The notes below the pieces were generated by a model, which saw only the letters and a list, made by a program, of their open reading frames with translations, was not told where the DNA came from and did no database searches. The position numbers and the translations under genes were made by a program. Positions 2,685-27,743 of a stretch of DNA of 64,000 nucleotides are shown piece after piece (position 1 is the first letter of the stretch; every line of letters begins with the position of its first letter). The stretch is from an uncultured Gammaproteobacteria bacterium (GTDB lineage Bacteria > Patescibacteriota > Patescibacteriia > UBA9934 > CAZDDW01): contig CAZDDW010000001.1 of the NCBI GenBank assembly GCA_964504365.1, positions 68,293 through 132,292 of the forward strand. Direction: 5' to 3'.

Positions 2685-3583
2685 ATTTAGAACAGGCAAT
2701 TTACAAAACCGTTGCCTACTTCTCATTATTTGATTATCCATTAACCACTTTCGAAATTTGGAAGTGGTTATTTGGTTATGGTGAAAAAGTTTCTTTGGTT
2801 GATTTGCGACGAGAGCTGGCCTCGAATAAGTTTTTGACTGAACGGCTTGATTCACACAATGGTTTTTGGTCGTTGGCTGGCAAGGATATTCCGGTCTTGG
2901 TTCGAACACGTCACGAACGTTTTCTGGATGCGGTGCGCAAGTATAAGCGCTTGCGTCGGGCCACTTGGTATTTGTCGCGCATTCCTTCAGTTCGTGGAGT
3001 TGCTGCCTGTAATACCTTGGCCTGGAATCATACTAAGGCCAGCAGCGATATTGATATTTTTATTATCGTCCGTGAGGGAAGTGTTTGGACTACTCGCTTG
3101 TTGGCTGTTGCCCCATTTAAAATTTTGAAAATGCGTCCAGGCGTGGCTAAGCGCGATCCGCTTTGTTTTACTTTCTTTTTGTCAGACACCAATCTTGATC
3201 TCTCTGTGCTTCGACTTGAAAACAGTGACCCATATTTAACTTACTGGAGCCGATCGATTGTCCCAGTGTTTGATCGCGATGGGGTGTTTGCTGAATTTCA
3301 TCAAGCCAATGGATGGCTTGAACAAGATCTGAGCAATTGTTATCAGCGAGCAATGCACAAAGGTCGTAGCTGTCCAGCCTTTGGTCGTGCCTGCCGCTCA
3401 CCAAGCCTTGTTGAACGGACTTGTGAGAAAATTCAACGTCGCAAGTTTCCGGAGGTGATTCAAAATATGGCTAATCGTGATTCTCGTGTTGTTGTTTCAG
3501 ACGCCATGTTAAAGTTTCATGATAACGATCGTAGAGCAGAATATCGAGATAAGCTAGAAGCCCTAATGATCAATGATCGATAA
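2681..3583 (+). CDS. hypothetical protein, possible nucleotidyltransferase-fold (G-x13-DxD)
   Basis: 300 aa. RGVAACNTLAWNHTKASSDIDIFII resembles the Pol-beta-type NTase motif; otherwise unrecognised. Confidence 0.35.
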   Translation: MNLEQAIYKTVAYFSLFDYPLTTFEIWKWLFGYGEKVSLVDLRRELASNKFLTERLDSHNGFWSLAGKDIPVLVRTRHERFLDAVRKYKRLRRATWYLSRIPSVRGVAACNTLAWNHTKASSDIDIFIIVREGSVWTTRLLAVAPFKILKMRPGVAKRDPLCFTFFLSDTNLDLSVLRLENSDPYLTYWSRSIVPVFDRDGVFAEFHQANGWLEQDLSNCYQRAMHKGRSCPAFGRACRSPSLVERTCEKIQRRKFPEVIQNMANRDSRVVVSDAMLKFHDNDRRAEYRDKLEALMINDR

Positions 3584-3695
3584 TCAATGATCAAGATAAT
3601 AACCAATGATCGAATTTTTGAACATTGGTTTTTTGGTCTTTATCTCGATCATTGGAATTTGGTCATTGGTCATTACGTGATAGAATATTAATACT

Positions 3696-4961
3696 ATGCG
3701 TGCTCGACTAATAAATTTTCTAGTTTACCTGACAGTCTTTCTTCTTCCTTGGCAAACGCGTTGGATTTTTGGGCAAGAGTTTTTGCAAGGTGATTTTTTC
3801 GAGTATGGCGTGCTTAGTATTTTTGCTACTGAGATTTTAGTTGTCTTGGTTGCTGTTTTGCGCCCGCGAATTGTTTCGCATCCAAAGTTTGATTGGCCAC
3901 TGATTTTTGGTGGTCTGTTTTTATTAATTTCTTTGGTCTCAGTACTTTTGGCAGCAAATCCGACCTTGGCTGTGATGGCATGGCTGCACGTACTGGTTGC
4001 TTTCTTTTTCTTTCATAATCTTTTGGACAAGCGAATCAAGATTCAAAAAGTTCTTTATGCTTTTGTTCTTGGGTTAATCATTCCGTCTTTTCTTGGCCTA
4101 TGGCAGTTCTTCACAGGCACCAGTCCTGAGTTGTCTTGGCTTGGTCTGGCTGGGCACGATGCTTTAGTTGCTGGCACTTCCGTTGTCGAAACCATGAGCG
4201 ATAGGCTAATGCGTGCTTACGGATCATTTCAGCATCCGAATTTGTTTGGTGGATATCTAGCCTTTGGTATGGTTTGTTTAATGATGCTACCGCGATGGTA
4301 TCGTAAGCTACGTGATCGACGTTTACTAATGTTGATCTCGATTCTTTTGGCCACTGCTTTCATTTTGACTTTTTCACGATCGGCTTGGCTGGCATTCTTT
4401 GTGGCCATGTTTATTGGTGGTTGGGTGTTGTTGTGGGAACATCGTGTGGCAGTGAAAAAGGCCATGCCGTATTTGACCGTGACTCTGCTAGCAATCGTGA
4501 TTTCTTTACTCGTCTTCTGGGAACCAGTGGCTGCTCGTTTCCACCCGTCCTTCCGACTTGAGGCTCAGTCGATCGCAGAGCGACAGGCTGGATACGAACT
4601 ATATCTGCCAACCATTCAGAACGATCTTTGGTTTGGGGTTGGTATTGGTAACTACACTGTCGAACTTGCTGCAAACCATCTCGGATCTCCGGCTTGGGCT
4701 TACCAGCCAATCCATAACACGATTCTGTTGATTCTTGGTGAGATTGGTATTATTGGTTTGATCTTTTTTATTGCCTGGGTTGCCTCGATTGATCGATTAA
4801 ATTTCAAAGCCTTGCCGCGAGCCACCGCCATCGGCGCGTTAACACTTGGCAACGTTGTCCTGATCATCGCTCTGTTCGATCATTATCTATTCACTCTCTG
4901 GCCCGGCCTAGCCCTAGCCGCTTTGATGTTCGCTTTGACCCTAAGATTGTCAGAACCTTAA
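3696..4961 (+). CDS. O-antigen ligase (Wzy_C/WaaL) family polytopic membrane protein
   Basis: 421 aa, more than 10 TM segments. ILTFSRSAWLAFFVAMFIGG is typical of the O-antigen ligase domain. Confidence 0.55.
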   Translation: MRARLINFLVYLTVFLLPWQTRWIFGQEFLQGDFFEYGVLSIFATEILVVLVAVLRPRIVSHPKFDWPLIFGGLFLLISLVSVLLAANPTLAVMAWLHVLVAFFFFHNLLDKRIKIQKVLYAFVLGLIIPSFLGLWQFFTGTSPELSWLGLAGHDALVAGTSVVETMSDRLMRAYGSFQHPNLFGGYLAFGMVCLMMLPRWYRKLRDRRLLMLISILLATAFILTFSRSAWLAFFVAMFIGGWVLLWEHRVAVKKAMPYLTVTLLAIVISLLVFWEPVAARFHPSFRLEAQSIAERQAGYELYLPTIQNDLWFGVGIGNYTVELAANHLGSPAWAYQPIHNTILLILGEIGIIGLIFFIAWVASIDRLNFKALPRATAIGALTLGNVVLIIALFDHYLFTLWPGLALAALMFALTLRLSEP

Positions 4962-4989
4962 TCTGAAGTTCAGAATTAAATAAAAAAGA

Positions 4990-5020
4990 CCCGGAACGTG
5001 AAGTGTTCCGGGTTTTGGTT
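4990..5020. terminator. bidirectional intrinsic terminator between convergent genes
   Basis: CCCGGAAC-GTGAAGT-GTTCCGGG followed by TTTTGGTTT; A-run on the other side. Confidence 0.6.
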
Positions 5021-5439
5021 TAGGCAACCAGCTTGATTGCCTGGAAGTGGTCAAAGCCGATCATCTCTTCGGTTAGGGACGAAAGTTCCTTGACCTCGAT
5101 CTCGGCCGCATCGCTTCCTGCCTGGCAATCAGCGATCGCCTCATGAGTAGGGAAGTCGATGTGGTAGACCAGGGAGACGTGGCGGCCAGGACGCGGGTCT
5201 CGGTCCTGGGCATCGAGCACGGTCAGCAGCTTGAGCTGATCAGCTCGGATCTGCAGCCCGACCTCTTCTTCGATCTCACGGACGCAAGCGTCGACAAAGC
5301 TTTCACCATCTTCGACATGCCCGCCAGGCAGAACCAAGCGATCCTGGAACGGAGCCTTGGCTCGCTTGATCAAGAGCACGTCACGGCCAGCAATAGTGAT
5401 CAGGGCATCAACAGTCAGTACGATTTGTTCGCTTCTCAT
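5020..5439 (-). CDS. NUDIX hydrolase
   Basis: Nudix box GGHVEDGESFVDACVREIEEEVGL. Start moved to the internal Met (MRSEQIV), which has an AGGAGA RBS. Local GC is about 58%. Confidence 0.75.
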   Translation of the reverse strand: MRSEQIVLTVDALITIAGRDVLLIKRAKAPFQDRLVLPGGHVEDGESFVDACVREIEEEVGLQIRADQLKLLTVLDAQDRDPRPGRHVSLVYHIDFPTHEAIADCQAGSDAAEIEVKELSSLTEEMIGFDHFQAIKLVA

Positions 5440-5449
5440 TTCATTCTCC

Positions 5450-5719
5450 TTAACGGTCGCAACTTCCGTGTTCTCGCTCTCGGATCGAGCTGTAGTCCGG
5501 CCCGTCGTAGTCGATGTCTGTCTGCACGCCACACTCGGCGCAGCGGAAGGTGACGTAGACATCGTGCCCGCCGCCGTAGTCGTAGTTGTGAGTCTTGTAA
5601 AGATCACCTTGTTCAACCAGGAGCACAGCACCACAGCCACCGCCCCCATTACCCTTACCAGAGCAAGTGAATTCCTTTGCCCAACCGCGCTGCGGGCGAC
5701 CCTTTTTGATGACCTGCAT
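5450..5719 (-). CDS. hypothetical small Gly/Cys-containing protein (possible zinc ribbon)
   Basis: 89 aa from the internal Met with a GGAGA RBS. CSGKGNGGGGCG...CAECG motifs. High GC. Immediately upstream of the Nudix gene on the same strand. Confidence 0.35.
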   Translation of the reverse strand: MQVIKKGRPQRGWAKEFTCSGKGNGGGGCGAVLLVEQGDLYKTHNYDYGGGHDVYVTFRCAECGVQTDIDYDGPDYSSIREREHGSCDR

Positions 5720-7864: not shown

Positions 7865-9514
<1,650 letters not shown>

Positions 9515-9627: not shown

Positions 9628-9975
9628 ATGACTGAAACAAGCACAGCTCCTGACTCAAAGGACATTGAGGACAATAAGGTTATTGCTGCTATTGGCTACC
9701 TTTGGATCCTTTGTCTGATTCCTTTGCTAGCTAAAAAGGATTCCAAGTTTGCTCAGCACCATGGAAAGCAGGGATTGGTTTTGACAGTGGTTTCGATCAT
9801 CATGTGGGTGGTTGGATTCATTCTAGCCTTTATTCCAATCATTGGTTGGTTAATCCTATTTGTGGTTTGGATTGCGATAATCGTTTTGGCAGTAATGGGA
9901 ATCATTAAGGCTTTGAATGGTGAGTATTGGGAAATGCCAATCCTCGGCGAGTACGCGAAGAAGATTAAGTTGTAG
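9628..9975 (+). CDS. small integral membrane protein (DUF4870-like topology)
   Basis: 115 aa, 3 TM segments. The family assignment is tentative. Confidence 0.45.
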   Translation: MTETSTAPDSKDIEDNKVIAAIGYLWILCLIPLLAKKDSKFAQHHGKQGLVLTVVSIIMWVVGFILAFIPIIGWLILFVVWIAIIVLAVMGIIKALNGEYWEMPILGEYAKKIKL

Positions 9976-9988
9976 AAAGTAGTTGAAG

Positions 9989-10020
9989 TAAGGGCACTCC
10001 TTGTGGGTGCCCTTTTGAAT
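9989..10020 (+). terminator. intrinsic terminator
   Basis: GGGCAC-TCCTTGTG-GGTGCCC followed by TTTT. Confidence 0.6.
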
Positions 10021-10082
10021 TTGAAAAAGAAAAAACCACATCTTGCGATGCGGCGCCGCGTTGCGACTTGTCCAGTAGTGGA

Positions 10083-10571
10083 CTAGAAGTTGAGATGGAC
10101 CAGGTAGTCCTTGCGGTCCCCGGACAGTCCGTAGGTAGTCAAGTTGCTGATCAGGTTGTTGACGGCGGGACGAACGGCACTGCCAGCGCCCCAGATTCCG
10201 GGCACATCCCTGATCCGTGCCTTGAATCCCGGACCATGTTCGACCACCTCGATCACCAGCTTGCCGTCGAGTCGTTCGGCGTTGCGCAGTTTGATCTCGG
10301 TCCGGATCGCGTCAGGGATGTCCAGGGTGAGTATTTCCGGGTACTCGAGGCTGAGGAAGTACCCTACGGTGGCGCCGAACTCGGCCCCTTCGTAGGTGAA
10401 GATCAGAAAGCGCGGCCCACCGTTGTGGAACGGATTGTCGGCCAGCCTCAGCTCGTACTGCCCCGGCGGAATCGGAACATGCTCGCCCGGGTCGTCTTCG
10501 TCGTTGCGATCGGCCCGCGGGAACCCCAGTTCCGTGCGCAAGGTCATGGTCATTCGTTCACTGTCACTCAT
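10083..10571 (-). CDS. hypothetical protein, paralog B of the MSD...PxGEYEL...FxYEG...LNF family
   Basis: 163 aa from MSDSERMTMTL with a GGAGA RBS. About 60% GC. Shares N-terminal and C-terminal (YLVHLNF vs YIIMLNF) similarity with the 11341-11832 product. Confidence 0.55.
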   Translation of the reverse strand: MSDSERMTMTLRTELGFPRADRNDEDDPGEHVPIPPGQYELRLADNPFHNGGPRFLIFTYEGAEFGATVGYFLSLEYPEILTLDIPDAIRTEIKLRNAERLDGKLVIEVVEHGPGFKARIRDVPGIWGAGSAVRPAVNNLISNLTTYGLSGDRKDYLVHLNF

Positions 10572-10573
10572 CG

Positions 10574-10870
10574 TCATCTCCACATGTAGATCATGGTCAG
10601 GATGGCAGAAGTTGGGATGGCTGAAAGGATCATTCCCCACATCTGCCATCGGTCTTTGTGCTTGTATCCGTTGGCAGCGTAGATCGTCTGTATGAACAGG
10701 AACATCCACCAGGTGATCGGTTCCATGCTGGACACGTCGTGTTCGAACAATGTCTTCTTGGCCTGAGCAGCAATACCGCCAGCGTTGAGAACGCCAGCAG
10801 TGGCCACGGCCGTGACGAACAGCCAGCTAAGGGCACGCCTCAACCAGTGTTTTTTGGGTTCGGAACCCAT
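10574..10870 (-). CDS. small membrane protein (2-3 TM), co-oriented with paralog B
   Basis: 98 aa, hydrophobic. Its stop abuts the start of the downstream gene. High GC. Confidence 0.45.
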   Translation of the reverse strand: MGSEPKKHWLRRALSWLFVTAVATAGVLNAGGIAAQAKKTLFEHDVSSMEPITWWMFLFIQTIYAANGYKHKDRWQMWGMILSAIPTSAILTMIYMWR

Positions 10871-11009
10871 GTTTGCTCCAATCTGTTGCGAAAGTACTAA
10901 CGTGACAGAATAGCATGAATAAGCTTATCTGTCAAGAGTGTTTGGCTAAAGTTAGCCAAGTTTCTGCTTAAAAGAAAAACCGCATCTGCTGATGCGGATC
11001 CTGAGTAGA

Positions 11010-11309
11010 TCACGCTTGCGAACGCGGCTGAGTTTCAGGCTTTGTGAGCCTGGTAATTTCGGCACGAACCCTTTCCGGGTCGTGTATGGTGTAGAGATCC
11101 GGATCTCCTTCTAATAGGCCGGTGGCAGAGTCACAGTACTTAAGCCCATCGTGGGTGAATACTGCCCAGACAACATCTTTTGTATCCAAGGGACTGGATA
11201 CAATCTCGATTTCATACTCTCCCTTGGGCACATGTCTGCCCTGTAGTGGTCTGCTCATTGGCTCCACGAAGAGAATGAACAGCCACCTCCTAGTGGTCGT
11301 TATCTTCAT
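11010..11309 (-). CDS. hypothetical protein, truncated paralog C (N-terminal domain only)
   Basis: MKITTTRRWLFILF...PKGEYEIEIV...VVWAVFTHDG aligns with the N-terminal ~65 aa of paralogs A and B. Start is uncertain (11309 or 11258). Confidence 0.4.
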   Translation of the reverse strand: MKITTTRRWLFILFVEPMSRPLQGRHVPKGEYEIEIVSSPLDTKDVVWAVFTHDGLKYCDSATGLLEGDPDLYTIHDPERVRAEITRLTKPETQPRSQA

Positions 11310-11340
11310 CGGTGTTTTATCACCCACTGTTCACCCCCCC

Positions 11341-11832
11341 CTAGAAGTTGAGCATGATGATGTAGTTGTTTCGGTCAGCCGGGTGTCCATGTTCTGCCAA
11401 TAGTGCAATCAGTTTGTCGATTGCTCCAAGCAGCTCAGGGTGGCTTACACCTTCAATCTCAGGGGCCTTTGCCAGAGAGGCTGTGTACGTCGCATCCGTA
11501 GCGTCGCCTTCTCGAATCACAACGATCTTGTCTCCAGGGAAGGACATCAGAATCTTCATCCGCAGCACGTCTGGAATTTGCACAACAATGTGGTCGCGTC
11601 CGTCAGTGATCAAGGAGTGACCCTGAGCCCCGTAGATCTTGCCCTCATATCGGAAGCCCAGGAAGGGAGCAGCGTGATTGGGAATTAGTGGATCTGGCAG
11701 TGCTTCCAGTTCATATTCCCCAGCAGGAATCATGTCACCCTTTCCGCCGTACCCCCAATCATCACATTTTTCTGGATACTGCATGAAGGTTTGTTTGTTG
11801 AGAAGGATCAGCCTCATTGTTCTGTCGCTCAT
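11341..11832 (-). CDS. hypothetical protein, paralog A of the same family
   Basis: 164 aa from MSDRTMRLILL. PAGEYELEAL, FLGFRYEG, C-terminal YIIMLNF. Confidence 0.55.
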   Translation of the reverse strand: MSDRTMRLILLNKQTFMQYPEKCDDWGYGGKGDMIPAGEYELEALPDPLIPNHAAPFLGFRYEGKIYGAQGHSLITDGRDHIVVQIPDVLRMKILMSFPGDKIVVIREGDATDATYTASLAKAPEIEGVSHPELLGAIDKLIALLAEHGHPADRNNYIIMLNF

Positions 11833-11936
11833 GTTCAGTCCTCTCTTGTAAGGCGATTGAAAATTAGCACAGGGTCGGTTTGAAGTCAATCAGGAAGGGT
11901 TGAAAATAAAGGTCTATTTTGCTAGTATAAGCCTAC

Positions 11937-13052
11937 ATGAAAGAGCTGATTAAGCAGATAAACGAGCTCAAAGATAAGGCGAGGGAAACCTGGTCGCTTT
12001 TAGATTTAGATACAGTAGAGACGCAGCTGAAAAGTCTGGAAACTGATATGGCAGCTCCAGATTTTTGGTCTGATCAGGAACGGGCTAAACGAGTTGGAAA
12101 GCAGGCCTCGGACTTGCGTGAGGAACTGGATCGATGGCGCGGGTTTTTGAAAGAGGTTGATGATTTGCTGGAACTGGCAAGTTCTGGCGATGATTCGATG
12201 CATGATGACATTGCCTCGAGTCTGGACGAACTGAGCACACGATTTGCTACAATGGAATTTGCCACTTTGTTTTCTGGGGAGCATGACAAGAACGATGCTA
12301 TTTTATCGTTCCATGCTGGGTCTGGTGGAACCGAGGCACAGGACTGGGCAGAGATGTTGATGCGCATGATATTTCGATTTTGTGAAAACAAGGGTTTTGA
12401 AACACAGATTTTATTTGAGTCTCGTGGAACTGAGACTGGGATCAAGTCAGCTACGATCAGAGTGTCCGGGCGTTACGCATTTGGATATTTGAAAAGTGAA
12501 CACGGTGTGCACCGTCTGGTCCGCATCTCTCCGTTCGATGCTGAAAAAATGCGTCACACTTCGTTTGCTTTGATTGAGGTATTGCCAGAGTTGGGCGAGG
12601 AAACAGAAGTCGAGATCGATCCAAAAGATTTACGAATCGATACATTTATGGCAGGTGGTCATGGTGGGCAAGGAGTGAACACGACTTACTCTGCTGTCCG
12701 TATCGTTCATGAGCCAACCAAGATTACGGTATCGTGTCAGAACGAACGATCGCAGCTGCAGAACAAAGAAACAGCAATGAAGATTTTGAAGAGCCGGCTG
12801 CATCAGTTGAAAATGCAAGAGGAAGCGGAAAAGAAAAAAGAGCTACGCGGTGAGTATCAAAGTGCAGAATGGGGAAATCAGATCCGATCCTACGTGTTGC
12901 ATCCATATCACATGGTCAAGGATCATCGCACTGAACACGAGACGCAGGAAACCGATGCGGTTCTTGACGGTGAACTTGAGCCGTTCATGGAATCATATCT
13001 TCGAAAACAACTAGAGTTAAGTGATAGATTCGAGGAAGCGAATAATGAATAA
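11937..13052 (+). CDS. prfB: peptide chain release factor 2, single in-frame ORF (no programmed frameshift)
   Basis: SPF motif (RISPFDA) and GGQ motif (GGHGGQGVN). Full-length N-terminus is present in one frame. Confidence 0.9.
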   Translation: MKELIKQINELKDKARETWSLLDLDTVETQLKSLETDMAAPDFWSDQERAKRVGKQASDLREELDRWRGFLKEVDDLLELASSGDDSMHDDIASSLDELSTRFATMEFATLFSGEHDKNDAILSFHAGSGGTEAQDWAEMLMRMIFRFCENKGFETQILFESRGTETGIKSATIRVSGRYAFGYLKSEHGVHRLVRISPFDAEKMRHTSFALIEVLPELGEETEVEIDPKDLRIDTFMAGGHGGQGVNTTYSAVRIVHEPTKITVSCQNERSQLQNKETAMKILKSRLHQLKMQEEAEKKKELRGEYQSAEWGNQIRSYVLHPYHMVKDHRTEHETQETDAVLDGELEPFMESYLRKQLELSDRFEEANNE

Positions 13053-17293: not shown

Positions 17294-20200
17294 ATGTTTG
17301 GACTTAGAAAATCAATCAAAAAATTCTTGGTAGCTACAGTTTTATCTTTGTTTTTGTTCCTGAGCACCGCATCAGGATTTTTGCTTTTTGCTGAACAGAC
17401 CAATGCTCAGACAGACGACGCTTTAATTGGGGTTGAGCAAGGTATTCGTGGTGTTGTTTCTCCGCTTTCTGATCCAGCGCAGAACTTAGCCGATATTGTT
17501 AAAACAGTTCGAAAAGAAATAATTAAAACAAAATTAACCATTGCTCTTAAAACAGTTTTGGTAAATTTGTTTAGTTTTGTTTTGAACAGATTGGCTTATG
17601 ACGCGGCCACTTATTTGGCAGCTGGTGCAACAGGACAGGAACCAGGGTTTGAATATAAGAATGCTGGTGAATATTTTGCTGACCTTGGTTTGGACGTTGC
17701 CACCAGTGCTTTCGATTCTTTGGGCGAGGTTTTAGATGAGGCTTTTGAAATCGAGTTTGATATTTGTGATCCAGGAAACCCAATGGTCAAGCTTGGCTTG
17801 CAATTTGGTATTGCTTCAGCATATCAGCGACCTGAACCGCGATGTGACTGGTCAGAGTTTACAAGTAATTGGGAGGCCTCGTTAGCCAGTTTTCAAGATT
17901 ATGCTTTGCTTGGTGAAAACCCAAGCGAATATTTTATAAAAGAATTTAAAAAAGCTTATAGTCCTGGACAGAGTCAGCTTGATGCTTCAATTAAGACAAA
18001 TGTTCGTGTTCATGAAAAAGTTTGGCAAGCAAAAACTAGGGATTTTTCAAAATCATTATCACAAGGCGGATTTAAAGATGTAACTGATTATATTTCCGGA
18101 AATATTAAAACCCCAGGTGTATTATTACAAGAGCAGGTCGAAGAAGAATTGGTTAGGCAAAAGAATGAACCAGACAAAGAAGCTTGGAAAGCCATTATAA
18201 ATGATAAAGAGTGGTTGGCTAATTCCGGTTTATCAATGGGCTCAGTTTTCTTAAATACTTTTCTTTCGAAATTGATGTCAGGAATCTATTCTGGTTTGGT
18301 TGAACCTGATCCAACAGATTTTGATTATTTTGATATGGATGACGTAACTGTTGGTACCGGAGGAAGAGAAGCCGCAGAAGAAGCCTACTCAGATTTGTTA
18401 ACCGCAGAGTTTTTGCCGCTTGATGATTTTAATGCTCTGAATGAATTAGTGGCTTGTCCCGGGTCTGATTCAAGAAATTTGTTTAACTGTGCTGCGGACA
18501 CGTCATTAACAACAGCCTTGAGTCGTGCTGAGTCTGGTGCGCCAATGACAGTGCAAGAAGCACTTGAAGAAGGGTTGTTGCATGGAGAGTGGCCATTGTA
18601 TCCCTCAGATGATTTTGGTAGTAACCAGGATCCGTATTGTTACACATATGGATATTGTTATGGAAACTTGGTTAAGATGAGAAAGTTTAGGATTATTCCT
18701 GTTGGTTGGGAAATTGCTGCAAACTCACCATACAACACAAGCACAAACCCAATTACTTTACAGGAAGTTGTTGATGGGTTTAATGACTGTGGTCCTGATG
18801 GTGCAATCGGTCCAAACTATCCTTGGTGTCACTTGATTGATCCAAACTGGGTTTTGAAAGCACCACAAAGCAGTTGTCCATTTGCTGCTCCGGGTGAACT
18901 TTTGGCCAGCTCAATGACTGGAATTCGTTTACCAAGCTGTGCTGACATGACTACTTGTATTGCTGAAGACCAAGAGGGAAACTGTGTTGGTGGCGAAGCC
19001 TATTGTACGCGCGAGAAAAATACTTGGCGTTTCCGTGGTGATGAGTGCCCTGAAGAGTATGCTAGTTGTTTGAGTTTTACTAACGCCAACACTAACGAGC
19101 TTGGAGATTGGCTCTTGAACACGGTTGATTTTGATTCTTGTACTGCTGATAATGCGGGCTGTCGTTGGTATCGGACCAATAAGTATCTTGATGATGAAAG
19201 TTACGAGTGGTTGCCAGCGGAAACTGAATATATAACATTTGATGAAGATATTGATACAGAAGCCTACCTGGATCGTAGATACTTAAACAATGATGCGCTT
19301 GAGTGTTCTGAAGACAATGCAGGCTGTACTCAGTTGATAGAGAAGGGTGATGATGTGGTGTTGAACGTGGTAGCTAATCCAAGTTTTGAAGATGATGAGA
19401 ATGATGACGGTCTACCAGATGCTTGGAACAACCTGACTGAAGATACTTATCAAGAGGATGAGTCTGGTTCAGTTTACGGATTGGATTATATTACCAGTAC
19501 TGACAACCTGATTTATATTACTCAGGAAAATATTGTTTTATCTGCGAGTCGTTTTTATACATTTAGTTTTTATGCCAACGAGACTGATGCAAGCATTCCT
19601 AATGACACGGTTGTTTGGATCTCGCTTGATGACAAGGATGATCCAACGAACATTGTGAGCCTAGAAGGAACTGCTATACTGGGGGATTGCGAATTAGATC
19701 CAAATGATTTTAGCAATGTTGCTTTAGGGATTGAGGATATTGGCGATGATCCAGAACGATTCGAATGTACCTTTACCACTCCTGCTTTTGATACGTTTGC
19801 CACGATTTGGATTTATACAGCTGAGGGAGAGCACGCCTTTGATGCTTTCCAACTTGAAGAAGGCTCGGTCTTACACGATTATCAAGCTGGTTACGGAGAT
19901 GCAACTTTGGCTTATGAATATTTACTAATGCCACCAGCCTATCTAGGATGCACCGGTGCAGAGACTGATCCGGAAGAGTGTGCGAATTATGCTCAGATGT
20001 GTACTTCACAGGAGGTTGGTTGTGAACTGTATACCCCAGCCGATGGTGATCCATCAGTTCCGGCGATTGTCTCTGAGTTAGATGAGTGTCCTTCTGAATG
20101 TGTTGGTTATGACACCTACAAGCAAGAGGCAACTTTGTACGATGATGAAGATTTTCCACTTTACTTTATTCCTGACACAGCCAATTCATGTACTGAGTCA

Positions 20201-23200
20201 GACGTTGGTTGTGACGAGTTTACAAATTTAGATTCTATAGATCTTGGTGGAGAGGGGTTGGAATACTATACATATTTGCGTGCTTGTACTAGCGCAGATG
20301 ATACAACTGAAGAAGCCACATTCTTTAGCTGGGAAGGCTCAGCTCAAACCGGCTACCAGTTGGTTAGTTGGGATTTGTTGGAATCGGATCTTGGTTCAGC
20401 TACAAAAACATTTGCAGAAAGTGGTGTAGAAGAAGTTAATGTTGGGGCCGCACCATGTATTAATCCAGTTTTATCTGATGAGACAACTTTGGTCTGTGAC
20501 GATGTTAATTATCAGGACGAAGACGGAAATAATGGTTGGACTGCAATTAGTTTGAATTCAGACTGTGATGAGCATGATGATATTTTTGATAATCCTGACT
20601 GCCGTGAATTCTATGACAGTGATGGAAATATCCACTATCGCGAGTTCTCTTTGACAGCCACGATCACTGACCAGTGCCATCCTTACCGAAAGAGCGAGTC
20701 TGCAGAGGAGGACTGTGACGGGTCTGGTGGTTATTGGACTGCTGGTGGCGAGTGTCGTTATCTTGGTTACATTGACGAGAGCACTACTTGTACCGAATCA
20801 GCTAATGGATGCCGATCATATACCGGAGGAGCTGGCCGTAATGCAACCACGATTTTCAGCGATGATGTTGAAGACGATTCTCTTGAAGAATGGTTTGGTA
20901 CAGCTGATGCTGTGATTTCAAACGAATCAGTTGCGGCCGGTGGTCATTCGATTCATGTAACTTCTGGAACCTTGGATCTACTTTACTTGATTGAGGATGA
21001 TGCAACAGATTGTGAAGAAGGCGAGGTTTGTGATCTAGAAGACCCGGCAGGTACTGGGGCCAACTGTGAGATTATTGGATCTGAAGATTTGGATGACTGT
21101 GGTTCATTGGTTGGTGCTTTGGTTCAAGGCAAAACTTACATTTTATCTTTCTGGGCCAAGGGTACAGAAGGAATTGGTGCTCGATTTATTGCTGATGGAG
21201 GTAATGGTGATTTTGAAACTTTTGAAGACGAGCTAGTTGATTTGTCTACTGGCTGGCAGCTTTATGAACTTGGTCCATTAGATACTACAGATTTTGAAGA
21301 TTTTGATGACACGGCCTTGTTGCGTATTCGTGGCACAGGTGAATACTATATTGATAATATTTACCTCAAAGAAGTTGAAGACAGTATCACTTTGATCAAA
21401 GATTCCTGGGTTACTCCATCAACTTGTGACGAAACACCGGAAGGAGTTGAGGCTGAACAGTTCTACCTTGGTTGTGAGGAATATTCTGATGGAGCTGGTG
21501 ATGATTTTTATCTGTACCGTTTCTCAAACATTTGTAGCGAGAGTGCTGTTGGTTGTGAATCATTCTTTACAACTCAGAATTCTGAATCTACTTTTGCTCA
21601 GGCTTATAATGTGACTTGTAGCACTGTTGGAGGAGGAATAGTTAGCACACCAACGGCTTGTGAGATGAGCGGACAGACTGTTTGTACAATTGGTGTTTCA
21701 CAAAGCAGCTGTCAGTTTGACTGGGATGGTGCCTTGCCTAATCCGTTACCGATAGACGGGCATATTTCACTTGGTCCAGAAGCTGTGGTTGTTCCAAATG
21801 ATATTGATGTTTTCTTAATTAACGACAGCTCAGCCACTTGTTCATCAACTTACATGGGTTGTACTGAGTTTGGTCAACCAACGTTTAATCAGGACAAGTC
21901 TGAGGTAACTGAGTTTGAGTCGATTTATTTATACGATTTGCCAGATGAATATGAGACCACGTTGTGTAACCACGAAGCTTTGTTCTGTGAGGCGTGGGAA
22001 ACAACTGCTGATGGAAATTTCTACTTTAAGGATCCGATTGACCAAACGTGTGAATGGAAAGATTCAGCTACTATTAATAATCAAACTTATTATGGTTGGT
22101 TCCGTGCTGGCACAAATGATCCATGTTATTACACAGACGAAAATGACAAGGTTGGTAGTGCATATTTGATTGCTGGGGAAGAGTTTGGTGTTTGGCGCAA
22201 TGGTGATGACGATTTTGCTGGTTGGGCAGCCGAGTGTGGTTCTCAACACGATCGTTGTACTGAATTCCTGGATCCAGTTGATACTTCTGAAGGCGACTTC
22301 CCACAAGGTGTGCCTTACTATTATGTAAATAATGATGAGCTGTCTGAGGAAAGCCTGGCCACATCACAGCAGTGTAGCGGCGAGGTAAGTCAGAACTTTG
22401 GCTGCATTCTATTTGATAACACAACTGACTCAGAGCTGCGTTATAACGCTAGCGCTTCTTACGTCTCCTCGGTCCGGGCTGACTTGCTTTTCGGTGATGC
22501 TCAGTATTCACCACAAACGCCAATCACCTGTGACACTGATTACGGCGGACAGATTGATACACCAGACTTAGGTACAGTTGATCTTTGCTGGAGCCAATGT
22601 CGTTACCCGGATTACACCGGTATCATGAATCGATTTAATCGAGATGATGTCTTTAATTCAAACTATACCTTTACAACTTCTTGTGTTGTTGATTTAGATT
22701 GTCCTCCAACCCAAGATCCTTGGGGCAATGAAGTTTCTGGAGAATGTGTGCTTTTGGATGGTGAACCAACCCCGGCTGCTGATATGCCAACAGATAAGTT
22801 GGTTAATGATACAAATACAATTTTGAAAGTTTACCGCGACCGTGAGTGTGCTGAGTGGTTAGCATGTTCCTCATATTCTTATAACTGGGACGAGAAGTCA
22901 GGAAGTTGGAAAAAGGTTTGTGCGGATTTGCGGTCTTGTAATGATTACAATGGTTATGGTGATAGTGCGACCTGTACAAATTTCCCAGTGCTTGATCCAG
23001 ATCCTTTGACCATGGCTGATTACGCTGCCCGTGACACAACTTGGTTTGGTCATGACTATTCCGGCTTCACTATTCCAGACAGTATTCCGGTTGATTTCTT
23101 GGATCAAGTAAACCTGACCCCGTCTGGGCAGTGTCACAATGGTATTAATTTTACAACACGAACTGGTCACGATGGTGAGCCTTGGCCTAGATCATGTGCG

Positions 23201-26200
23201 GCTGATGACGATTGTTCGACTGGTACTTGTGAGGCAAACTCCGAAAGTGATTATAGATTAGCTTATGTGGCCGGGTCGTGTGATGAAGATAATGGGGAGC
23301 TGTGTACTTTAGGAATTTGTTCTGACACTGGTGAGGCCTGTGCTGAGGATTCTGAGTGTAATAATAACGACTGTGTGGTTGGTTATTGTAAGCGCACATG
23401 GATTGGTTCTAGTTGTCTTGAGAATTCTGATTGTGTTGGCCAAGGTTATGGGCATCTGACTTCTTGTGATAACGGAGTATGTGTAAATGACCCTGATGAC
23501 GAACAGACTGGGACCTGTACAGTTGATGCTAACTGTCAGGGTGAGCTTGATCGTGATGGTGATGGAATAAATGATATTTTTGCCGAGTGTGCTTTGTATG
23601 AAGAGTCACACGTCGGAGCCTGTAGTAATAGTCAGTGTATTATCGATCAATACGGCGATGCCTTTAGTATTAATAATTCTGAAGAGGTTGAGTGCCGTGG
23701 TTACCCAGAAGCTGATGCCCCGTTCCCACATGACTTGGTTACGGAGTGGAAAGGTTTTGTTCGGAACCCGGATCCAGTTGTGAGCTATGACACCTTACAA
23801 AGTTTACTTGAATCGAATAATCATGATCAAAGTAATATTGCTGATGCTGTGCCGTACGATTTAACATATAGCTATTCGAATGTAAACATTTGTGGTCCAA
23901 ACGATGAAGATTGTCTGTGCTCATACAACAAGGCCAGTTTTGGTAACGGTATTTATACACGTTACTTTGAAGCTGGTCGGACATTGAGTGAGGTTCAGGA
24001 TGATGCTGGAGACGGTTTAGGTTTCCAAGGTATTTGTATGGGTGGAACTCAGGAGGGTAAGAAGTGTTCTGATGATTCTGGTTGTGGTGGTGATTTTGCC
24101 ACTTGTCAGATTATTACCAACTATGACACCCACATGGGTTGGGAAGGTTATTGTTTGGAGCGTGATAGTTCGATTAACCGTTGGGGAAATCAAGATGGTC
24201 CAGGGGTATGTCTGACTTGGCTACCAGTTGATCAGCTGGTTGGTTCAACTGATTTGTACGGTAAGTACACTGAAGCCGGCTTCCCGTTGGAGAATGAATA
24301 TTATTGTGTTGAGACCGGGTACTATCGTGACTTCTATACAGCGGGTATTAGTATGGACGAGGATGGTATTCCTCAAACAAGCGTAAATACACAGATTGCT
24401 TGTGCTTCTACGCAATATGGTGAATATCGACGAGATGATGATTGGTGGGATCTTGATCCACAAGATAGGGTTCCAGACAATGCCTTGAATGGCTGTTGGC
24501 AGTATGTCTACTGCCCTGAGGGTTATAAGGGAATTGTTGCTTTTCCAGTAGACCAAGATGATGGTTATCAGGATGGATATAATACCAGGTGTATGGATGA
24601 CGACGATGGTGGTACTAATGACTTCTATGGTGATGATGCTGGAAACGGTTGGCACGATTGTCCATATATTTGTATCCCGAATGACTCTTATACTCCTGCG
24701 GGAGAAAGTTGTGAACAAGAATGGAACACGAGTTTTAACAGAGACTTTGATGCTAGCGGAACTGTGGAAGAAGATGAAGAAGAATCATATTTTGGTACAC
24801 CAGTGAAATGGGCTGTAAAGTTGGGCGATGATGATGGTGTGCTGAATACCTTTAATTGGCATCGTTGTGTGCGCCGAGGTGTGCCAGTTGCTCGAGATGT
24901 AACTGATTATGAAATGGATTGGCATACAGCTTTCTGGGTTGGTGATCCAACTGATCCTGGTGTACAAGTTGGAGGAAAATACGTTGCTGGTCAAACCGAA
25001 GAAGAGTGTTATGATGCTGCCAGTTTGCATGAATTAGATTGTGAGCTTCTGAGTGAAGCGGTTTATCCGGATGATTGGCCAACGCCAGGTATGGGATTAG
25101 ACTTCTCGTGTTTTTACTCAGAGGATGAGTTGGTATGTGATGATAATCGTGAGGGGTTGGCGTTTGGTAGGCTCGCAGCGACAAATCATGTTGGGTTCTG
25201 GGGGCTTGATTACACAAATATAAATGTAAACGCTGGCGATGACACTGGAGCATTCTATGAATATCTTGGTTGTTTTGCCATGGCTCAAGTTGCCACTGAT
25301 GATATGTCATCAAACAACAAGGCTTACACGCAGCGCTTGTTGTATGATGGTGATGACAGTTATGCCACACAAGAACCAGGTGATGGAGTTTATAATAACC
25401 TGTACATTACTAAGGACGATGGTAATCCGTCATATTCACCAGCCGGTGCCCTGCCTTTTGAAGATTATTTTGAACCAAAATCAACTCACCAGGCCGGGAC
25501 CTTATATATCTTTGATAAAGACATGTTCTATAACGACCCTGATTTGGTAGATGATGAAGACGTTGATTCAGGCCCAATTCCTGTTTTGGCCTGTGATGAT
25601 GGAACCGAGGCTCTGGGTGCAATTGGATTGCATACGGTTTATGACGAAGGAACTGATTGTGATGGCGACGACATTGGTTTTTATCCAACGAATTATCAGT
25701 GGTCATTTATTGACAATGATAATCTATTGACTTCACTTGGTTTGTCTTATGAAGTGTTAAGGGGTACAGACGAGGCACAGATTGAAGACCGCGCTCAAGG
25801 AGCGTATGCAAACACTTTTGATGACATCGGGCAAGCTGAGAACATGCAGTCATCGTATGAATTATTGGGGCAGTTCTTCAATAAGGTTTTTGAAATTTTC
25901 TTGTGGGAATGGAAAGTCGAGAATGATAATTTCCAAGACATTGCACCACAGGCTGGCCAAGGAGCATACTTCAGTCTTGATGATTGTGTTGCAGATGATA
26001 ATTGTGAGCTATATTTTCCTGGAAGGCAGCAAGCCTTTGACGGTGAGTTTGACGATGGTACGCCGTTTGATTTTGCTGGAGTGGAAGATCTGATGTTTGG
26101 AAAGAGCTATGCATATGATCAGGATCCGGTGCTAGAAAATCCGCAAGATTATGAAACTGAACCAACTGCGCCGACAACGGTTTCGCTTGGGCAGTGTTGG

Positions 26201-26890
26201 GGAAGTTATTGTCGTGAGGATGAAGAAGACGAGATAACTTTGAATGATCAGGATCATGGAAACTATACGATTGGTGGTGGTGCGGCTCATGTGACCATGG
26301 AATTCTTTATTAAGGCTGATCCAAACCAATTCCCAATCCGTAATATTATTGTTGATTGGGGTGATGAAAGCACTCTGGTTGGAAGCCAAGAGCCTGATAA
26401 TTTCTACAAAGCTTATCGAGGTTTGCAAAGTGGTGAGCAAGAGAACAGTATTTGTAGTGCTGAGGGTGCTTGGGGCGAGACTTCAGAATCATGTATTTCT
26501 GGATACGTGACTTATGTTCATGATTACGTTTGTCCGCAGTGGTGGTTGGATGATGAAGCAAGGGATGAGTGTGAGTATCATGATGCTCCGGATGGTAAAG
26601 AGATTGTTCTGAATGCCCCGTGTAAGGATGCTAGTGGGTCATACTGTGTTTACCAACCACGCGTGCATATTCGTGATAACTGGGGTTATTGTTCTGGTTA
26701 TTGTGAAGGTGGAGATGATTTAGGTGGTGATCTTTGTTATGATGGTCTGAACGCAGGTGCCGGATATAATGAGTGTGATTTAGATTGTCCAAGCGGCAAC
26801 TGTCCTAAGGCGCTATTCTATGGGGATGATGCAGATTATGATAACCCATGGGTCTACTACGATGGTCAAGTAATGGTAAGTCCAAATTAA
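17294..26890 (+). CDS. giant (3198 aa) secreted/surface Cys-rich repeat protein
   Basis: Uninterrupted 9.6-kb ORF with an N-terminal signal/TM segment. Recurring xGC(E/D/R/T)x(F/Y/L)T Cys motif, for example NAGCRWYRT, EVGCELYTP, DVGCDEFTN, ANGCRSYTG, AVGCESFFT, YMGCTEFGQ. Opposite-strand ORFs are short and spurious. Confidence 0.75.
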   Translation: MFGLRKSIKKFLVATVLSLFLFLSTASGFLLFAEQTNAQTDDALIGVEQGIRGVVSPLSDPAQNLADIVKTVRKEIIKTKLTIALKTVLVNLFSFVLNRLAYDAATYLAAGATGQEPGFEYKNAGEYFADLGLDVATSAFDSLGEVLDEAFEIEFDICDPGNPMVKLGLQFGIASAYQRPEPRCDWSEFTSNWEASLASFQDYALLGENPSEYFIKEFKKAYSPGQSQLDASIKTNVRVHEKVWQAKTRDFSKSLSQGGFKDVTDYISGNIKTPGVLLQEQVEEELVRQKNEPDKEAWKAIINDKEWLANSGLSMGSVFLNTFLSKLMSGIYSGLVEPDPTDFDYFDMDDVTVGTGGREAAEEAYSDLLTAEFLPLDDFNALNELVACPGSDSRNLFNCAADTSLTTALSRAESGAPMTVQEALEEGLLHGEWPLYPSDDFGSNQDPYCYTYGYCYGNLVKMRKFRIIPVGWEIAANSPYNTSTNPITLQEVVDGFNDCGPDGAIGPNYPWCHLIDPNWVLKAPQSSCPFAAPGELLASSMTGIRLPSCADMTTCIAEDQEGNCVGGEAYCTREKNTWRFRGDECPEEYASCLSFTNANTNELGDWLLNTVDFDSCTADNAGCRWYRTNKYLDDESYEWLPAETEYITFDEDIDTEAYLDRRYLNNDALECSEDNAGCTQLIEKGDDVVLNVVANPSFEDDENDDGLPDAWNNLTEDTYQEDESGSVYGLDYITSTDNLIYITQENIVLSASRFYTFSFYANETDASIPNDTVVWISLDDKDDPTNIVSLEGTAILGDCELDPNDFSNVALGIEDIGDDPERFECTFTTPAFDTFATIWIYTAEGEHAFDAFQLEEGSVLHDYQAGYGDATLAYEYLLMPPAYLGCTGAETDPEECANYAQMCTSQEVGCELYTPADGDPSVPAIVSELDECPSECVGYDTYKQEATLYDDEDFPLYFIPDTANSCTESDVGCDEFTNLDSIDLGGEGLEYYTYLRACTSADDTTEEATFFSWEGSAQTGYQLVSWDLLESDLGSATKTFAESGVEEVNVGAAPCINPVLSDETTLVCDDVNYQDEDGNNGWTAISLNSDCDEHDDIFDNPDCREFYDSDGNIHYREFSLTATITDQCHPYRKSESAEEDCDGSGGYWTAGGECRYLGYIDESTTCTESANGCRSYTGGAGRNATTIFSDDVEDDSLEEWFGTADAVISNESVAAGGHSIHVTSGTLDLLYLIEDDATDCEEGEVCDLEDPAGTGANCEIIGSEDLDDCGSLVGALVQGKTYILSFWAKGTEGIGARFIADGGNGDFETFEDELVDLSTGWQLYELGPLDTTDFEDFDDTALLRIRGTGEYYIDNIYLKEVEDSITLIKDSWVTPSTCDETPEGVEAEQFYLGCEEYSDGAGDDFYLYRFSNICSESAVGCESFFTTQNSESTFAQAYNVTCSTVGGGIVSTPTACEMSGQTVCTIGVSQSSCQFDWDGALPNPLPIDGHISLGPEAVVVPNDIDVFLINDSSATCSSTYMGCTEFGQPTFNQDKSEVTEFESIYLYDLPDEYETTLCNHEALFCEAWETTADGNFYFKDPIDQTCEWKDSATINNQTYYGWFRAGTNDPCYYTDENDKVGSAYLIAGEEFGVWRNGDDDFAGWAAECGSQHDRCTEFLDPVDTSEGDFPQGVPYYYVNNDELSEESLATSQQCSGEVSQNFGCILFDNTTDSELRYNASASYVSSVRADLLFGDAQYSPQTPITCDTDYGGQIDTPDLGTVDLCWSQCRYPDYTGIMNRFNRDDVFNSNYTFTTSCVVDLDCPPTQDPWGNEVSGECVLLDGEPTPAADMPTDKLVNDTNTILKVYRDRECAEWLACSSYSYNWDEKSGSWKKVCADLRSCNDYNGYGDSATCTNFPVLDPDPLTMADYAARDTTWFGHDYSGFTIPDSIPVDFLDQVNLTPSGQCHNGINFTTRTGHDGEPWPRSCAADDDCSTGTCEANSESDYRLAYVAGSCDEDNGELCTLGICSDTGEACAEDSECNNNDCVVGYCKRTWIGSSCLENSDCVGQGYGHLTSCDNGVCVNDPDDEQTGTCTVDANCQGELDRDGDGINDIFAECALYEESHVGACSNSQCIIDQYGDAFSINNSEEVECRGYPEADAPFPHDLVTEWKGFVRNPDPVVSYDTLQSLLESNNHDQSNIADAVPYDLTYSYSNVNICGPNDEDCLCSYNKASFGNGIYTRYFEAGRTLSEVQDDAGDGLGFQGICMGGTQEGKKCSDDSGCGGDFATCQIITNYDTHMGWEGYCLERDSSINRWGNQDGPGVCLTWLPVDQLVGSTDLYGKYTEAGFPLENEYYCVETGYYRDFYTAGISMDEDGIPQTSVNTQIACASTQYGEYRRDDDWWDLDPQDRVPDNALNGCWQYVYCPEGYKGIVAFPVDQDDGYQDGYNTRCMDDDDGGTNDFYGDDAGNGWHDCPYICIPNDSYTPAGESCEQEWNTSFNRDFDASGTVEEDEEESYFGTPVKWAVKLGDDDGVLNTFNWHRCVRRGVPVARDVTDYEMDWHTAFWVGDPTDPGVQVGGKYVAGQTEEECYDAASLHELDCELLSEAVYPDDWPTPGMGLDFSCFYSEDELVCDDNREGLAFGRLAATNHVGFWGLDYTNINVNAGDDTGAFYEYLGCFAMAQVATDDMSSNNKAYTQRLLYDGDDSYATQEPGDGVYNNLYITKDDGNPSYSPAGALPFEDYFEPKSTHQAGTLYIFDKDMFYNDPDLVDDEDVDSGPIPVLACDDGTEALGAIGLHTVYDEGTDCDGDDIGFYPTNYQWSFIDNDNLLTSLGLSYEVLRGTDEAQIEDRAQGAYANTFDDIGQAENMQSSYELLGQFFNKVFEIFLWEWKVENDNFQDIAPQAGQGAYFSLDDCVADDNCELYFPGRQQAFDGEFDDGTPFDFAGVEDLMFGKSYAYDQDPVLENPQDYETEPTAPTTVSLGQCWGSYCREDEEDEITLNDQDHGNYTIGGGAAHVTMEFFIKADPNQFPIRNIIVDWGDESTLVGSQEPDNFYKAYRGLQSGEQENSICSAEGAWGETSESCISGYVTYVHDYVCPQWWLDDEARDECEYHDAPDGKEIVLNAPCKDASGSYCVYQPRVHIRDNWGYCSGYCEGGDDLGGDLCYDGLNAGAGYNECDLDCPSGNCPKALFYGDDADYDNPWVYYDGQVMVSPN

Positions 26891-27056: not shown

Positions 27057-27743
27057 CTACTTGAGGTAGCAATGAGTCACGGTCGGGTAGTCGATCCTGA
27101 ACTCTGACGGGTCGATGTTGATCGTTCCGATGAGCTCGTTGAATGAGGGGCCGAAGTACTCACCGTAGATCGTGTACTCTGCCGAGTCAACAATCGTCAA
27201 GGTGATCTCGTCACCGTTGATGGTGGTCTCGATCTGTTCGGTCGAGACGTAGTCACCAAGCTCGTTGCAGGCGCCGTCGACACCCTCGTACACGTCGTAC
27301 GTGCCGTTCGGGGCCAGACCCCACTCGCCGTCCGGGCCGGACCAGGCAACGGACTCGTACTGTCCGTGCTGGATGATGTTCACGTGCTGATCCAGGAACA
27401 GGGCGTTGTCCGCCTCGAAGGTGATCTCGTGCTCTCCTTGGTGCTCGGTCTGGCAGGTGCAATGGTCCGCGTCGTCACAGGAACCAACCGGCTCACCATT
27501 CTCGAAGGTGAACGCACCCGAGAACCCATCCGGAGCCTCGGCGTAGATGGTGGCCGAGAACGGCGTGGTGTCGTCATCGTCACCGGTGTCGTCGTCGTCC
27601 GTGACGTCGTCGTCATCGTCCGTGTTGGTCACATCGTCGTCATCGTCACCCGGGTTGTCCTCCGGGTCACAGCCGCCGCAGATGATCGTGGTCAGGAACA
27701 GGACCCCCATCAGGAGGGCCAGGATCGTGTGGATCCGAGTCAT
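27057..27743 (-). CDS. lipoprotein with N-terminal poly-Asp linker (high-GC paralog)
   Basis: Signal peptide with Cys (TTIICGGC). DDDDDVTNTDDDDDVTDDDDTGDDDDTT linker. The C-terminal domain is homologous to the 29605-30321 product. About 62% GC. Confidence 0.6.
   Translation of the reverse strand: MTRIHTILALLMGVLFLTTIICGGCDPEDNPGDDDDDVTNTDDDDDVTDDDDTGDDDDTTPFSATIYAEAPDGFSGAFTFENGEPVGSCDDADHCTCQTEHQGEHEITFEADNALFLDQHVNIIQHGQYESVAWSGPDGEWGLAPNGTYDVYEGVDGACNELGDYVSTEQIETTINGDEITLTIVDSAEYTIYGEYFGPSFNELIGTINIDPSEFRIDYPTVTHCYLK

Follow-up and report, generated by a model that had tools for sequence, protein, structure and literature searches.

In PnuC-NadR, a Pnu-type facilitator with 7-8 transmembrane (TM) helices is paired with a cytoplasmic trapping partner. 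The SemiSWEETs, which belong to the same broad superfamily, are small proteins of about 90-100 aa with three TM helices. In EcSemiSWEET, the hinge is Pro21, Gln22 belongs to the PQ motif, Thr15, Trp50 and Asn66 form the pocket, and the substitution P21A abolishes sucrose uptake (PMC4309421). Here we examine an islet of four open reading frames (ORFs), named A, C, Mem and B, in a 64,000-nt stretch of a Patescibacteria chromosome (the window; assembly GCA_964504365.1, contig CAZDDW010000001.1, positions 68,293 to 132,292 of the forward strand). All four lie on the minus strand between a DUF4870 gene and prfB, co-oriented and at the places given by the initial annotation. That annotation could assign the paralogous family to no known fold, and this did not hold: Mem appears to be a divergent SemiSWEET/PQ-loop relative, and the C-terminal domain shared by A and B resembles HicB_N/UPF0150 at the level of the fold. 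The islet is a genuine and very rare accessory cassette, which combines a divergent member of a known membrane-protein superfamily with a new soluble protein family containing a known small fold.

Mem is 98 aa long, with hydropathy peaks at about residues 14-35, 51-65 and 78-97, and thus fits the SemiSWEET size. When a profile of six Mem sequences was compared with all PDB sequences, only SemiSWEETs were matched, near full length and in register (E 0.0031 for 4x5m, 0.011 for 4qnd, 0.022 for 9kon, 0.53 for 4rng and 1.2 for 4qnc), and a profile of three sequences returned the identical top three structures. The Mem ortholog of a sibling genome (locus L087) matches the NCBIfam model SemiSWEET_3 at E 0.01, and one Mem relative is annotated by JGI as 'PQ loop repeat'. 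In the HMMER alignment, the functional residues of EcSemiSWEET correspond to Ala35 (Pro21), Gln36 (Gln22), Asn29 (Thr15), Tyr64 (Trp50) and Met80 (Asn66). N29, Q36, Y64 and M80 are invariant across the six members of the Mem family, as is an N-A-G-G sequence upstream of the hinge; the invariant positions imply a pocket that is specific and conserved, and not a nonspecific pore. Judged from these alignments, Mem is a relative of the SemiSWEET superfamily with a conserved but different pocket, and not a canonical sugar SemiSWEET.

The more distant Mem relatives were found in three contexts: alone beside EamA transporter genes, followed by a second small membrane ORF, or overlapping by 4 nt with an unrelated 134-aa gene. 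The partners of these remote relatives are unrelated to the A/B family. The standalone relative is 47% identical to Mem and has no adjacent partner gene, which argues that Mem is not intrinsically toxic. Together these contexts suggest that such proteins have a benign function in the membrane, for which a cytosolic partner is optional. Scans with the Mem profile gave no relatives in JGI metagenomes or IMG/VR.

The paralogy of A and B, proposed earlier from a shared N-domain and similar C-terminal ends, was borne out by BLASTP (E 1e-12, 30% identity over 135 aa), with an alignment that runs through to the C-terminal ...Y(I/L)xxLNF ends. C matches only the N-domains of A (E 1e-5) and B (E 5e-8), as its earlier description as an N-domain-only gene had it, but the start then assigned to it, ATG 11309, needs revision. 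GTG 11327 is the more likely start, because a G-run Shine-Dalgarno site lies 6 nt upstream of it and the resulting N-terminus, MGDKTPM, resembles the MSDxxxM of the family. The NCBI gene calls give 105 aa for C and 162 aa for B. C is a truncated full-length paralog, which retains the helix P(E/D)xxRxEI.

An AlphaFold2 (AF2) model of B was obtained from 13 sequences, with a predicted local distance difference test score (pLDDT) of 90.9 and a predicted template modelling score (pTM) of 0.71. It consists of an N-domain (about residues 1-100) with six strands and two helices, and a C-domain (about 104-162) of the order beta-beta-beta-alpha-beta. The C-domain of A and B is HicB_N/UPF0150-like at the fold level. 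Membership by sequence was not found: the Pfam UPF0150-like families matched B only, at E 0.03-0.19 with scores of 12-15 bits, which is under the cutoff of 27.3. An hhalign comparison with E. coli HicB aligned the two in the right register with a probability of 0.4%, and comparisons of the C-domain and short-family profiles with PDB sequences gave chance matches only, for example tobacco mosaic virus coat protein and P450 BM-3. The last HicB_N-like strand forms the end of B, and neither the AF2 model nor Pfam showed a C-terminal ribbon-helix-helix (RHH) or helix-turn-helix (HTH) DNA-binding domain. The Pfam and NCBIfam searches detected no catalytic family in B and no HicA next to it; the upstream gene is Mem. 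The family of A, B and C as a whole has no Pfam, NCBIfam, PHROG or PADLOC assignment, and it is not a housekeeping family.

The rarity of this family was assessed by an exhaustive hidden Markov model search of 1.84 billion representative proteins with the A/B/C profile. Further full-length homologs were limited to P0004 (163 aa) and P0005 (157 aa), and the family amounts to five full-length or near-full-length clusters. The initial annotation had foreseen that the ORFs might lack counterparts in any other genome; homologs do exist elsewhere. A set of giant surface or repeat proteins (P0006-P0014, E 1e-12 to 8e-4) was rejected as homologs, as each of their repeats scored at most 9.4 bits and the E-values are sums over weak repeats. 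A word-indexed search with A alone returned only A itself, and pattern scans derived from the A/B/C alignment gave no relatives in GTDB representative genomes or IMG/VR. The exhaustive search also gave P0011, a 61-aa protein with the C-domain only. It represents an A-type C-domain alone (...HGHPGDRSNYLIIYK), and its gene (L092, 5261-5754) lies among glycosyltransferase genes, with 33 nt between it and a preceding gene of 91 aa that is unannotated. The two genes could represent the A/B system in a minimal, related form.

The Mem-B gene pair is conserved as a unit. P0004 is encoded at the prfB/DUF4870 junction of the sibling genome L087, whose GroEL and RF2 (release factor 2) are 92% and 82% identical to those of the window. 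In both L087 and a third locus, L090, a Mem ortholog is followed by a full-length protein (gaps of 3 and 1 nt) and then by a short N-domain-only protein of about 92-97 aa. Upstream of Mem, all three cassette loci have the palindrome GCTAA-N3-TTAGC and then the promoter TTGACA-N17-TGCTAxxxT. The palindrome, which lies at 10944-10957 in the window, at about 1425-1440 in L087 and at about 105-120 in L090, may be an operator. It is also present, at 3197-3216, in L007, a locus of the closest species, which lacks the cassette and retains the palindrome together with a decayed promoter, which suggests that L007 has lost the cassette by deletion. In the window, the A-C unit is located between the palindrome and the prfB promoter, and for this reason looks like a secondary insertion or duplication. 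The proteins diverge at different rates: identities are 75% and 55% between Mem and its two orthologs and 82-92% for the flanking proteins, whereas they are 40-44% between B and its counterparts, and 28-33% between A and each of B, P0004 and P0005. The islet is 100% identical across six metagenome contigs, leaving no population variation with which selection could be tested.

A, B and C share homology in their N-domain with an unannotated protein family, whose members are about 92 aa long and carry the motif WLVLKGT(L/K)IG (P0021-P0031; hhalign probability 98%, E 2.4e-13, 70 columns). This family was found at 21 metagenome loci of 31-67% GC with varied neighbours, and never there with Mem or the C-domain. 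One member, P0029 (L100, 8001-9419), has the short N-domain at its C-terminus. Its gene is followed, after about 220 nt, by a multi-TM ORF of 206 aa (8799-9419), whose frame differs from that of the Arg-rich JGI call. This multi-TM ORF was considered as a PQ-loop protein and rejected (hhalign probability 1.3%, no PDB match).

The islet interrupts an otherwise compact and conserved neighbourhood. It is flanked by groES/groEL and the gene of the DUF4870 membrane protein on one side, and by prfB and an epimerase gene on the other. The flanking RF2 is 85% identical to that of the Candidatus Uhrbacteria metagenome-assembled genome from which L007 comes. The order groEL-DUF4870-prfB is kept in about 19 of the Patescibacteria loci that were fetched, and there the gap between DUF4870 and prfB measures about 50-700 bp, mostly less than 300 bp (460 bp in L007). 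In the window it extends over 1961 bp, and in L087 over 4855 bp. The window is homologous to L007 and L087 up to 9974-9976 and again from 11915 onwards. At 80 species-representative prfB loci, no relatives of the islet proteins are encoded. A search for direct repeats or att-like sites flanking the islet found none, and there is no mobility gene.

The composition of the islet also sets it apart. The figure of about 60% GC given in the initial annotation applies to B only (61%); over the islet as a whole (10030-11890) the value is 53.3%, with 53.5% for Mem and 51% for A and C. Even so, no other stretch of 1.86 kb in the window, which has a mean of 44.5% (standard deviation 2.8%), is richer in GC. 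The GC content at third codon positions (GC3) is 0.79 in B, 0.70 in Mem, 0.56 in A and 0.54 in C, versus 0.37-0.50 in five measured flanking host genes, and the composition is therefore considered foreign. Together with the otherwise conserved junction, this agrees with the island-like, horizontally transferred character that had been proposed. The best explanation of the sequence data is that the islet is a compositionally foreign, horizontally acquired insert, and a lineage-restricted accessory cassette of a Ca. Uhrbacteria (Patescibacteria) chromosome. The prfB/DUF4870 junction behaves like a hot spot for variable cargo.

At the same junction, L087 contains a larger island (2900-5516), which encodes two 2-TM paralogs of 257 and 183 aa, both with their TM segments at the N-terminus and without a Pfam match, and also holds a second short N-domain gene, P0021 (97 aa). 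The neighbouring prfB (11937-13052, plus strand) is a single ORF of 371 aa with no interruption, and apparently lacks the programmed +1 frameshift site that is present in prfB of many bacteria. L007 has about 130 nt extra (3289-3421) between the prfB promoter and the start codon, absent from the window and bounded by a long inverted repeat, CCTGCCCGGCAGTACAACTTTGAA ... TTCAAAGTTGTCCTGCCGGG; this could be an insertion resembling a miniature inverted-repeat transposable element (MITE) or a leader structure.

The features of the islet are collected in Table 1. The initial annotation placed the four genes between terminators; terminator-like hairpins follow B and C, and the convergent DUF4870 gene has one of its own. 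With separate hairpins after C and after B, the islet consists of two transcription units, A-C and Mem-B, and not of one. The coupling of the small membrane gene to B was correctly described: the TGA stop of Mem (10576-10574) is 2 nt ahead of the ATG of B, and a GGAG lies 6 nt upstream of this ATG.

Table 1. Positions of the genes and signals of the islet in the window
Feature	Position	Strand	Remarks
Terminator-like hairpin (intrinsic type) of the DUF4870 gene	9990..10014	+	Gene convergent with the islet; left edge of the islet
Terminator-like hairpin with T-run, Mem-B unit	10035..10054	-	3' of B
Gene B, 162 aa	10083..10571	-	Beta-rich N-domain, about 1-100; C-domain, about 104-162; GC 61%, GC3 0.79
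Gene Mem, 98 aa	10574..10870	-	Three TM segments; divergent SemiSWEET/PQ-loop-like
Sigma-70-type promoter of Mem-B, TTGACA-N17-(TGc)TATTCT	10907..10935	-	Kept in L087 and L090
Palindrome GGCTAA-N2-TTAGCC	10944..10957	strandless	Adjoins the -35 element on its upstream side; candidate operator
Terminator-like hairpin with T-run, A-C unit	10980..10997	-	3' of C
Gene C, 105 aa from GTG 11327 (99 aa from ATG 11309)	11010..11327	-	N-domain and the next helix, without C-domain
Gene A, 163 aa	11341..11832	-	Divergent full-length paralog of B; without adjacent membrane gene
Shine-Dalgarno site of gene A, GAGAGGA	11845-11839	-	Sequence inspection
Promoter-like sequence of A, TTGACT-N17-(TGc)TAATTT	11861..11889	-	Read by eye; under the -10 threshold of the promoter scan

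The explanation that these are spurious ORFs is excluded. The genes are not chance ORFs, since the codon-position GC of B (0.63/0.41/0.79) is consistent with its minus-strand frame, homologs occur in other genomes, and the AF2 model of B is confident. A 173-aa ORF on the plus strand over B (10068-10589), present in the ENA calls, was rejected, because it runs antisense to a conserved gene and shows a mirrored codon-position GC pattern. The ENA calls of two further loci, L002 (3344-3838) and L003 (2096-2590), likewise give an antisense 164-aa ORF in place of gene B. These antisense calls are an artefact of high-GC overprinting, which would hide the family of B in those assemblies.

Elsewhere in the window, two paralogous putative lipoproteins of 228 and 238 aa are encoded on the minus strand (27057-27743 and 29605-30321). 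Both have long Asp/Thr-rich, acidic, low-complexity linkers and no Pfam match, and the gene at 27057-27743 lies in another high-GC patch (56%). A giant ORF on the plus strand (17294-26890) encodes 3198 aa, with a marginal CBM_4_9 match as its sole Pfam signal; its product is probably a large surface protein typical of Patescibacteria.

What could the function of the cassette be? We tentatively favour a transport reading, in which Mem would form a SemiSWEET-like dimeric conduit that passes a non-canonical solute, and B, its cytoplasmic partner in stoichiometric amount, would serve as a gate or a trap. This reading is preferred because the superfamily consists of transporters, because the pocket positions are invariant, and because Mem relatives exist without a partner. 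Mem would dimerise, as SemiSWEETs do, into a small alternating-access conduit. The solute carried would probably be other than the canonical sugars, since the pocket has been remodelled yet is strictly conserved (Asn29/Tyr64/Met80 versus Thr15/Trp50/Asn66). B would be made in fixed proportion to Mem from one mRNA, as their stop and start codons are only 2 nt apart. It might then act on Mem from the cytoplasm, by gating the conduit or by capturing the incoming solute, with the N-domain and the HicB_N-like C-domain serving as binding modules and not as enzymes. On the Mem side, a candidate contact site for B is the KHKDR(W/M)Q loop, which only the B-coupled Mem proteins conserve. The separately transcribed A-C unit may supply spare partners or partners with a modulating role; it may also be a duplicate in decay.

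Several observations weigh against a conduit with a cytoplasmic partner. The SemiSWEET likeness stays under every curated threshold: NCBIfam SemiSWEET_3 gives 16 bits against a 100-bit cutoff, and the Pfam PQ-loop match (E 0.046, below cutoff) concerns one Mem relative only. The proline of the PQ hinge is replaced by alanine, and is absent in all six members of the Mem family. The sugar pocket is not retained, with invariant Tyr64 and Met80 in place of Trp50 and Asn66. No substrate-related enzyme or kinase is encoded near the islet. Finally, several traits are more typical of conflict genes than of transporters: the presence or absence of the cassette among sibling species, the fast divergence of the soluble partner (40-44%, versus 55-75% for Mem and 82-92% for the flanks), and the orphan and truncated paralogs together with the antitoxin-type fold of the C-domain of B.

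These traits are the basis of the main alternative reading, which we consider rather unlikely, namely that the cassette is a module of the toxin-antidote or abortive-infection type. Mem would be a membrane-permeabilising effector, B its antidote or sensor, and A and C orphan or decaying copies of the antidote. The weak UPF0150-like match of B (E 0.03-0.19) points in this direction, and the tightly coupled order of a small protein followed by a HicB-like one recalls hicA-hicB. This reading is also supported by the foreign composition of the islet, the presence or absence of the cassette at one junction among three sibling species, with a decayed promoter in L007, the faster divergence of the soluble partner compared to Mem, and the combination of paralog expansion and truncation. 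However, the likeness to HicB is at the fold level only: the C-domain profile found nothing in the PDB, the hhalign probability was as low as reported above, B has no HicB DNA-binding domain, and there is no HicA. The HicB_N partners known so far are soluble RNases and not membrane proteins. Mem, for its part, retains an invariant transporter-like pocket, and its 47%-identical relative stands without a partner gene. Neither defence collections nor phages and plasmids offered a match: in PADLOC-DB v2, 0 families were obtained at E<=1 for A, B, C, Mem, P0004, P0005, P0025 and P0017, there were no matches in PHROGs, GenBank phages or PLSDB plasmids, and a Foldseek search of BFVD gave nothing at E<=0.001. 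A variant of the conflict explanation, to which we give a little less credence still, is an undescribed two- or three-gene system of the Candidate Phyla Radiation (CPR), composed of a SemiSWEET-fold effector, a HicB-fold checker with an N-terminal sensor domain, and N-domain-only decoys or modulators.

It seems improbable to us that the cassette is a hitch-hiker, selfish or in decay, that has no present role in the cell and is made of fast-evolving ORFs kept transiently at a recombination hot spot. The extreme rarity of the family, with its five clusters among 1.84 billion representatives, the loss of the cassette in the closest species, the truncation of C, and the identity of the islet in six metagenome contigs, with no variation for testing selection, would all fit this explanation. 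It is at odds with four intact reading frames that have Shine-Dalgarno sites, promoters and terminators, with the 55-75% conservation of Mem where the partners have fallen to 40-44%, with the conservation of promoter and palindrome across three loci, and with the confident predicted fold of B. That the islet is what remains of a phage lysis cassette, in which Mem would be a small holin-like membrane protein and the next gene would encode a cell-wall-binding protein, is largely refuted and very improbable: a small three-TM gene does abut the next gene as in holin-endolysin pairs, but no catalytic peptidoglycan-hydrolase domain was found, there are no phage genes near the islet, PHROGs, BFVD, IMG/VR and GenBank phages gave no matches, and B lacks a signal peptide.

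Most accessory genes in the tiny genomes of Patescibacteria are unannotated, and one such cassette has now been resolved into recognisable parts. If the gated conduit is true, the SemiSWEET family would be extended to non-sugar roles and to operation regulated by a partner; if the toxin-antidote reading is true, Mem would represent a new class of effector. Either way, there is a defined cassette at three loci and a new small domain, that of the 'WLVLKGT' family, which is spread over diverse bacteria, and B is a cytoplasmic partner that unites this new domain family with an antitoxin-type fold.

Compared to the SemiSWEETs of E. coli (4X5M) and Vibrio (4QND), Mem has a similar length, three TM segments, an in-register profile similarity over nearly its whole length, the glutamine of the PQ motif and an aromatic residue at the position of Trp50. 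It differs from them in the alanine hinge after the invariant N-A-G-G, in the methionine for Asn66, the tyrosine for Trp50 and the invariant asparagine for Thr15, and in being coupled to a non-metabolic cytosolic protein and not to sugar-metabolism genes (for SemiSWEET gene contexts, see PMC5972207). The 'WLVLKGT' family has the N-domain in common with A, B and C, and one of its members follows the full-length gene in L087 and L090. It lacks the helix and the C-domain of A and B, however, and C of the islet is not a member. With the N-domain of HicB and the UPF0150 proteins (3K6Q, TTHA1013 1WV8, 6G1C, 6U0I), B shares the beta-beta-beta-alpha-beta order of residues 104-162 or thereabouts, a motif GFKARIRDVPGIWGAG...AVNNLI that is in register with the HicB sequence 'GGY..s..D(I/L)PG...G.T..EA', and a place downstream of a small coupled gene, as hicB comes after hicA. 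B has no significant sequence match to HicB, no HicA neighbour and no RHH or HTH domain; it has instead an additional, novel N-terminal domain of about 100 aa, and the gene coupled to it encodes a membrane protein. The comparison with PnuC-NadR is a conceptual analogy only, and B lacks a kinase or other enzyme signature. What the two systems would have in common is that a membrane facilitator gains direction or control from a dedicated cytoplasmic protein.

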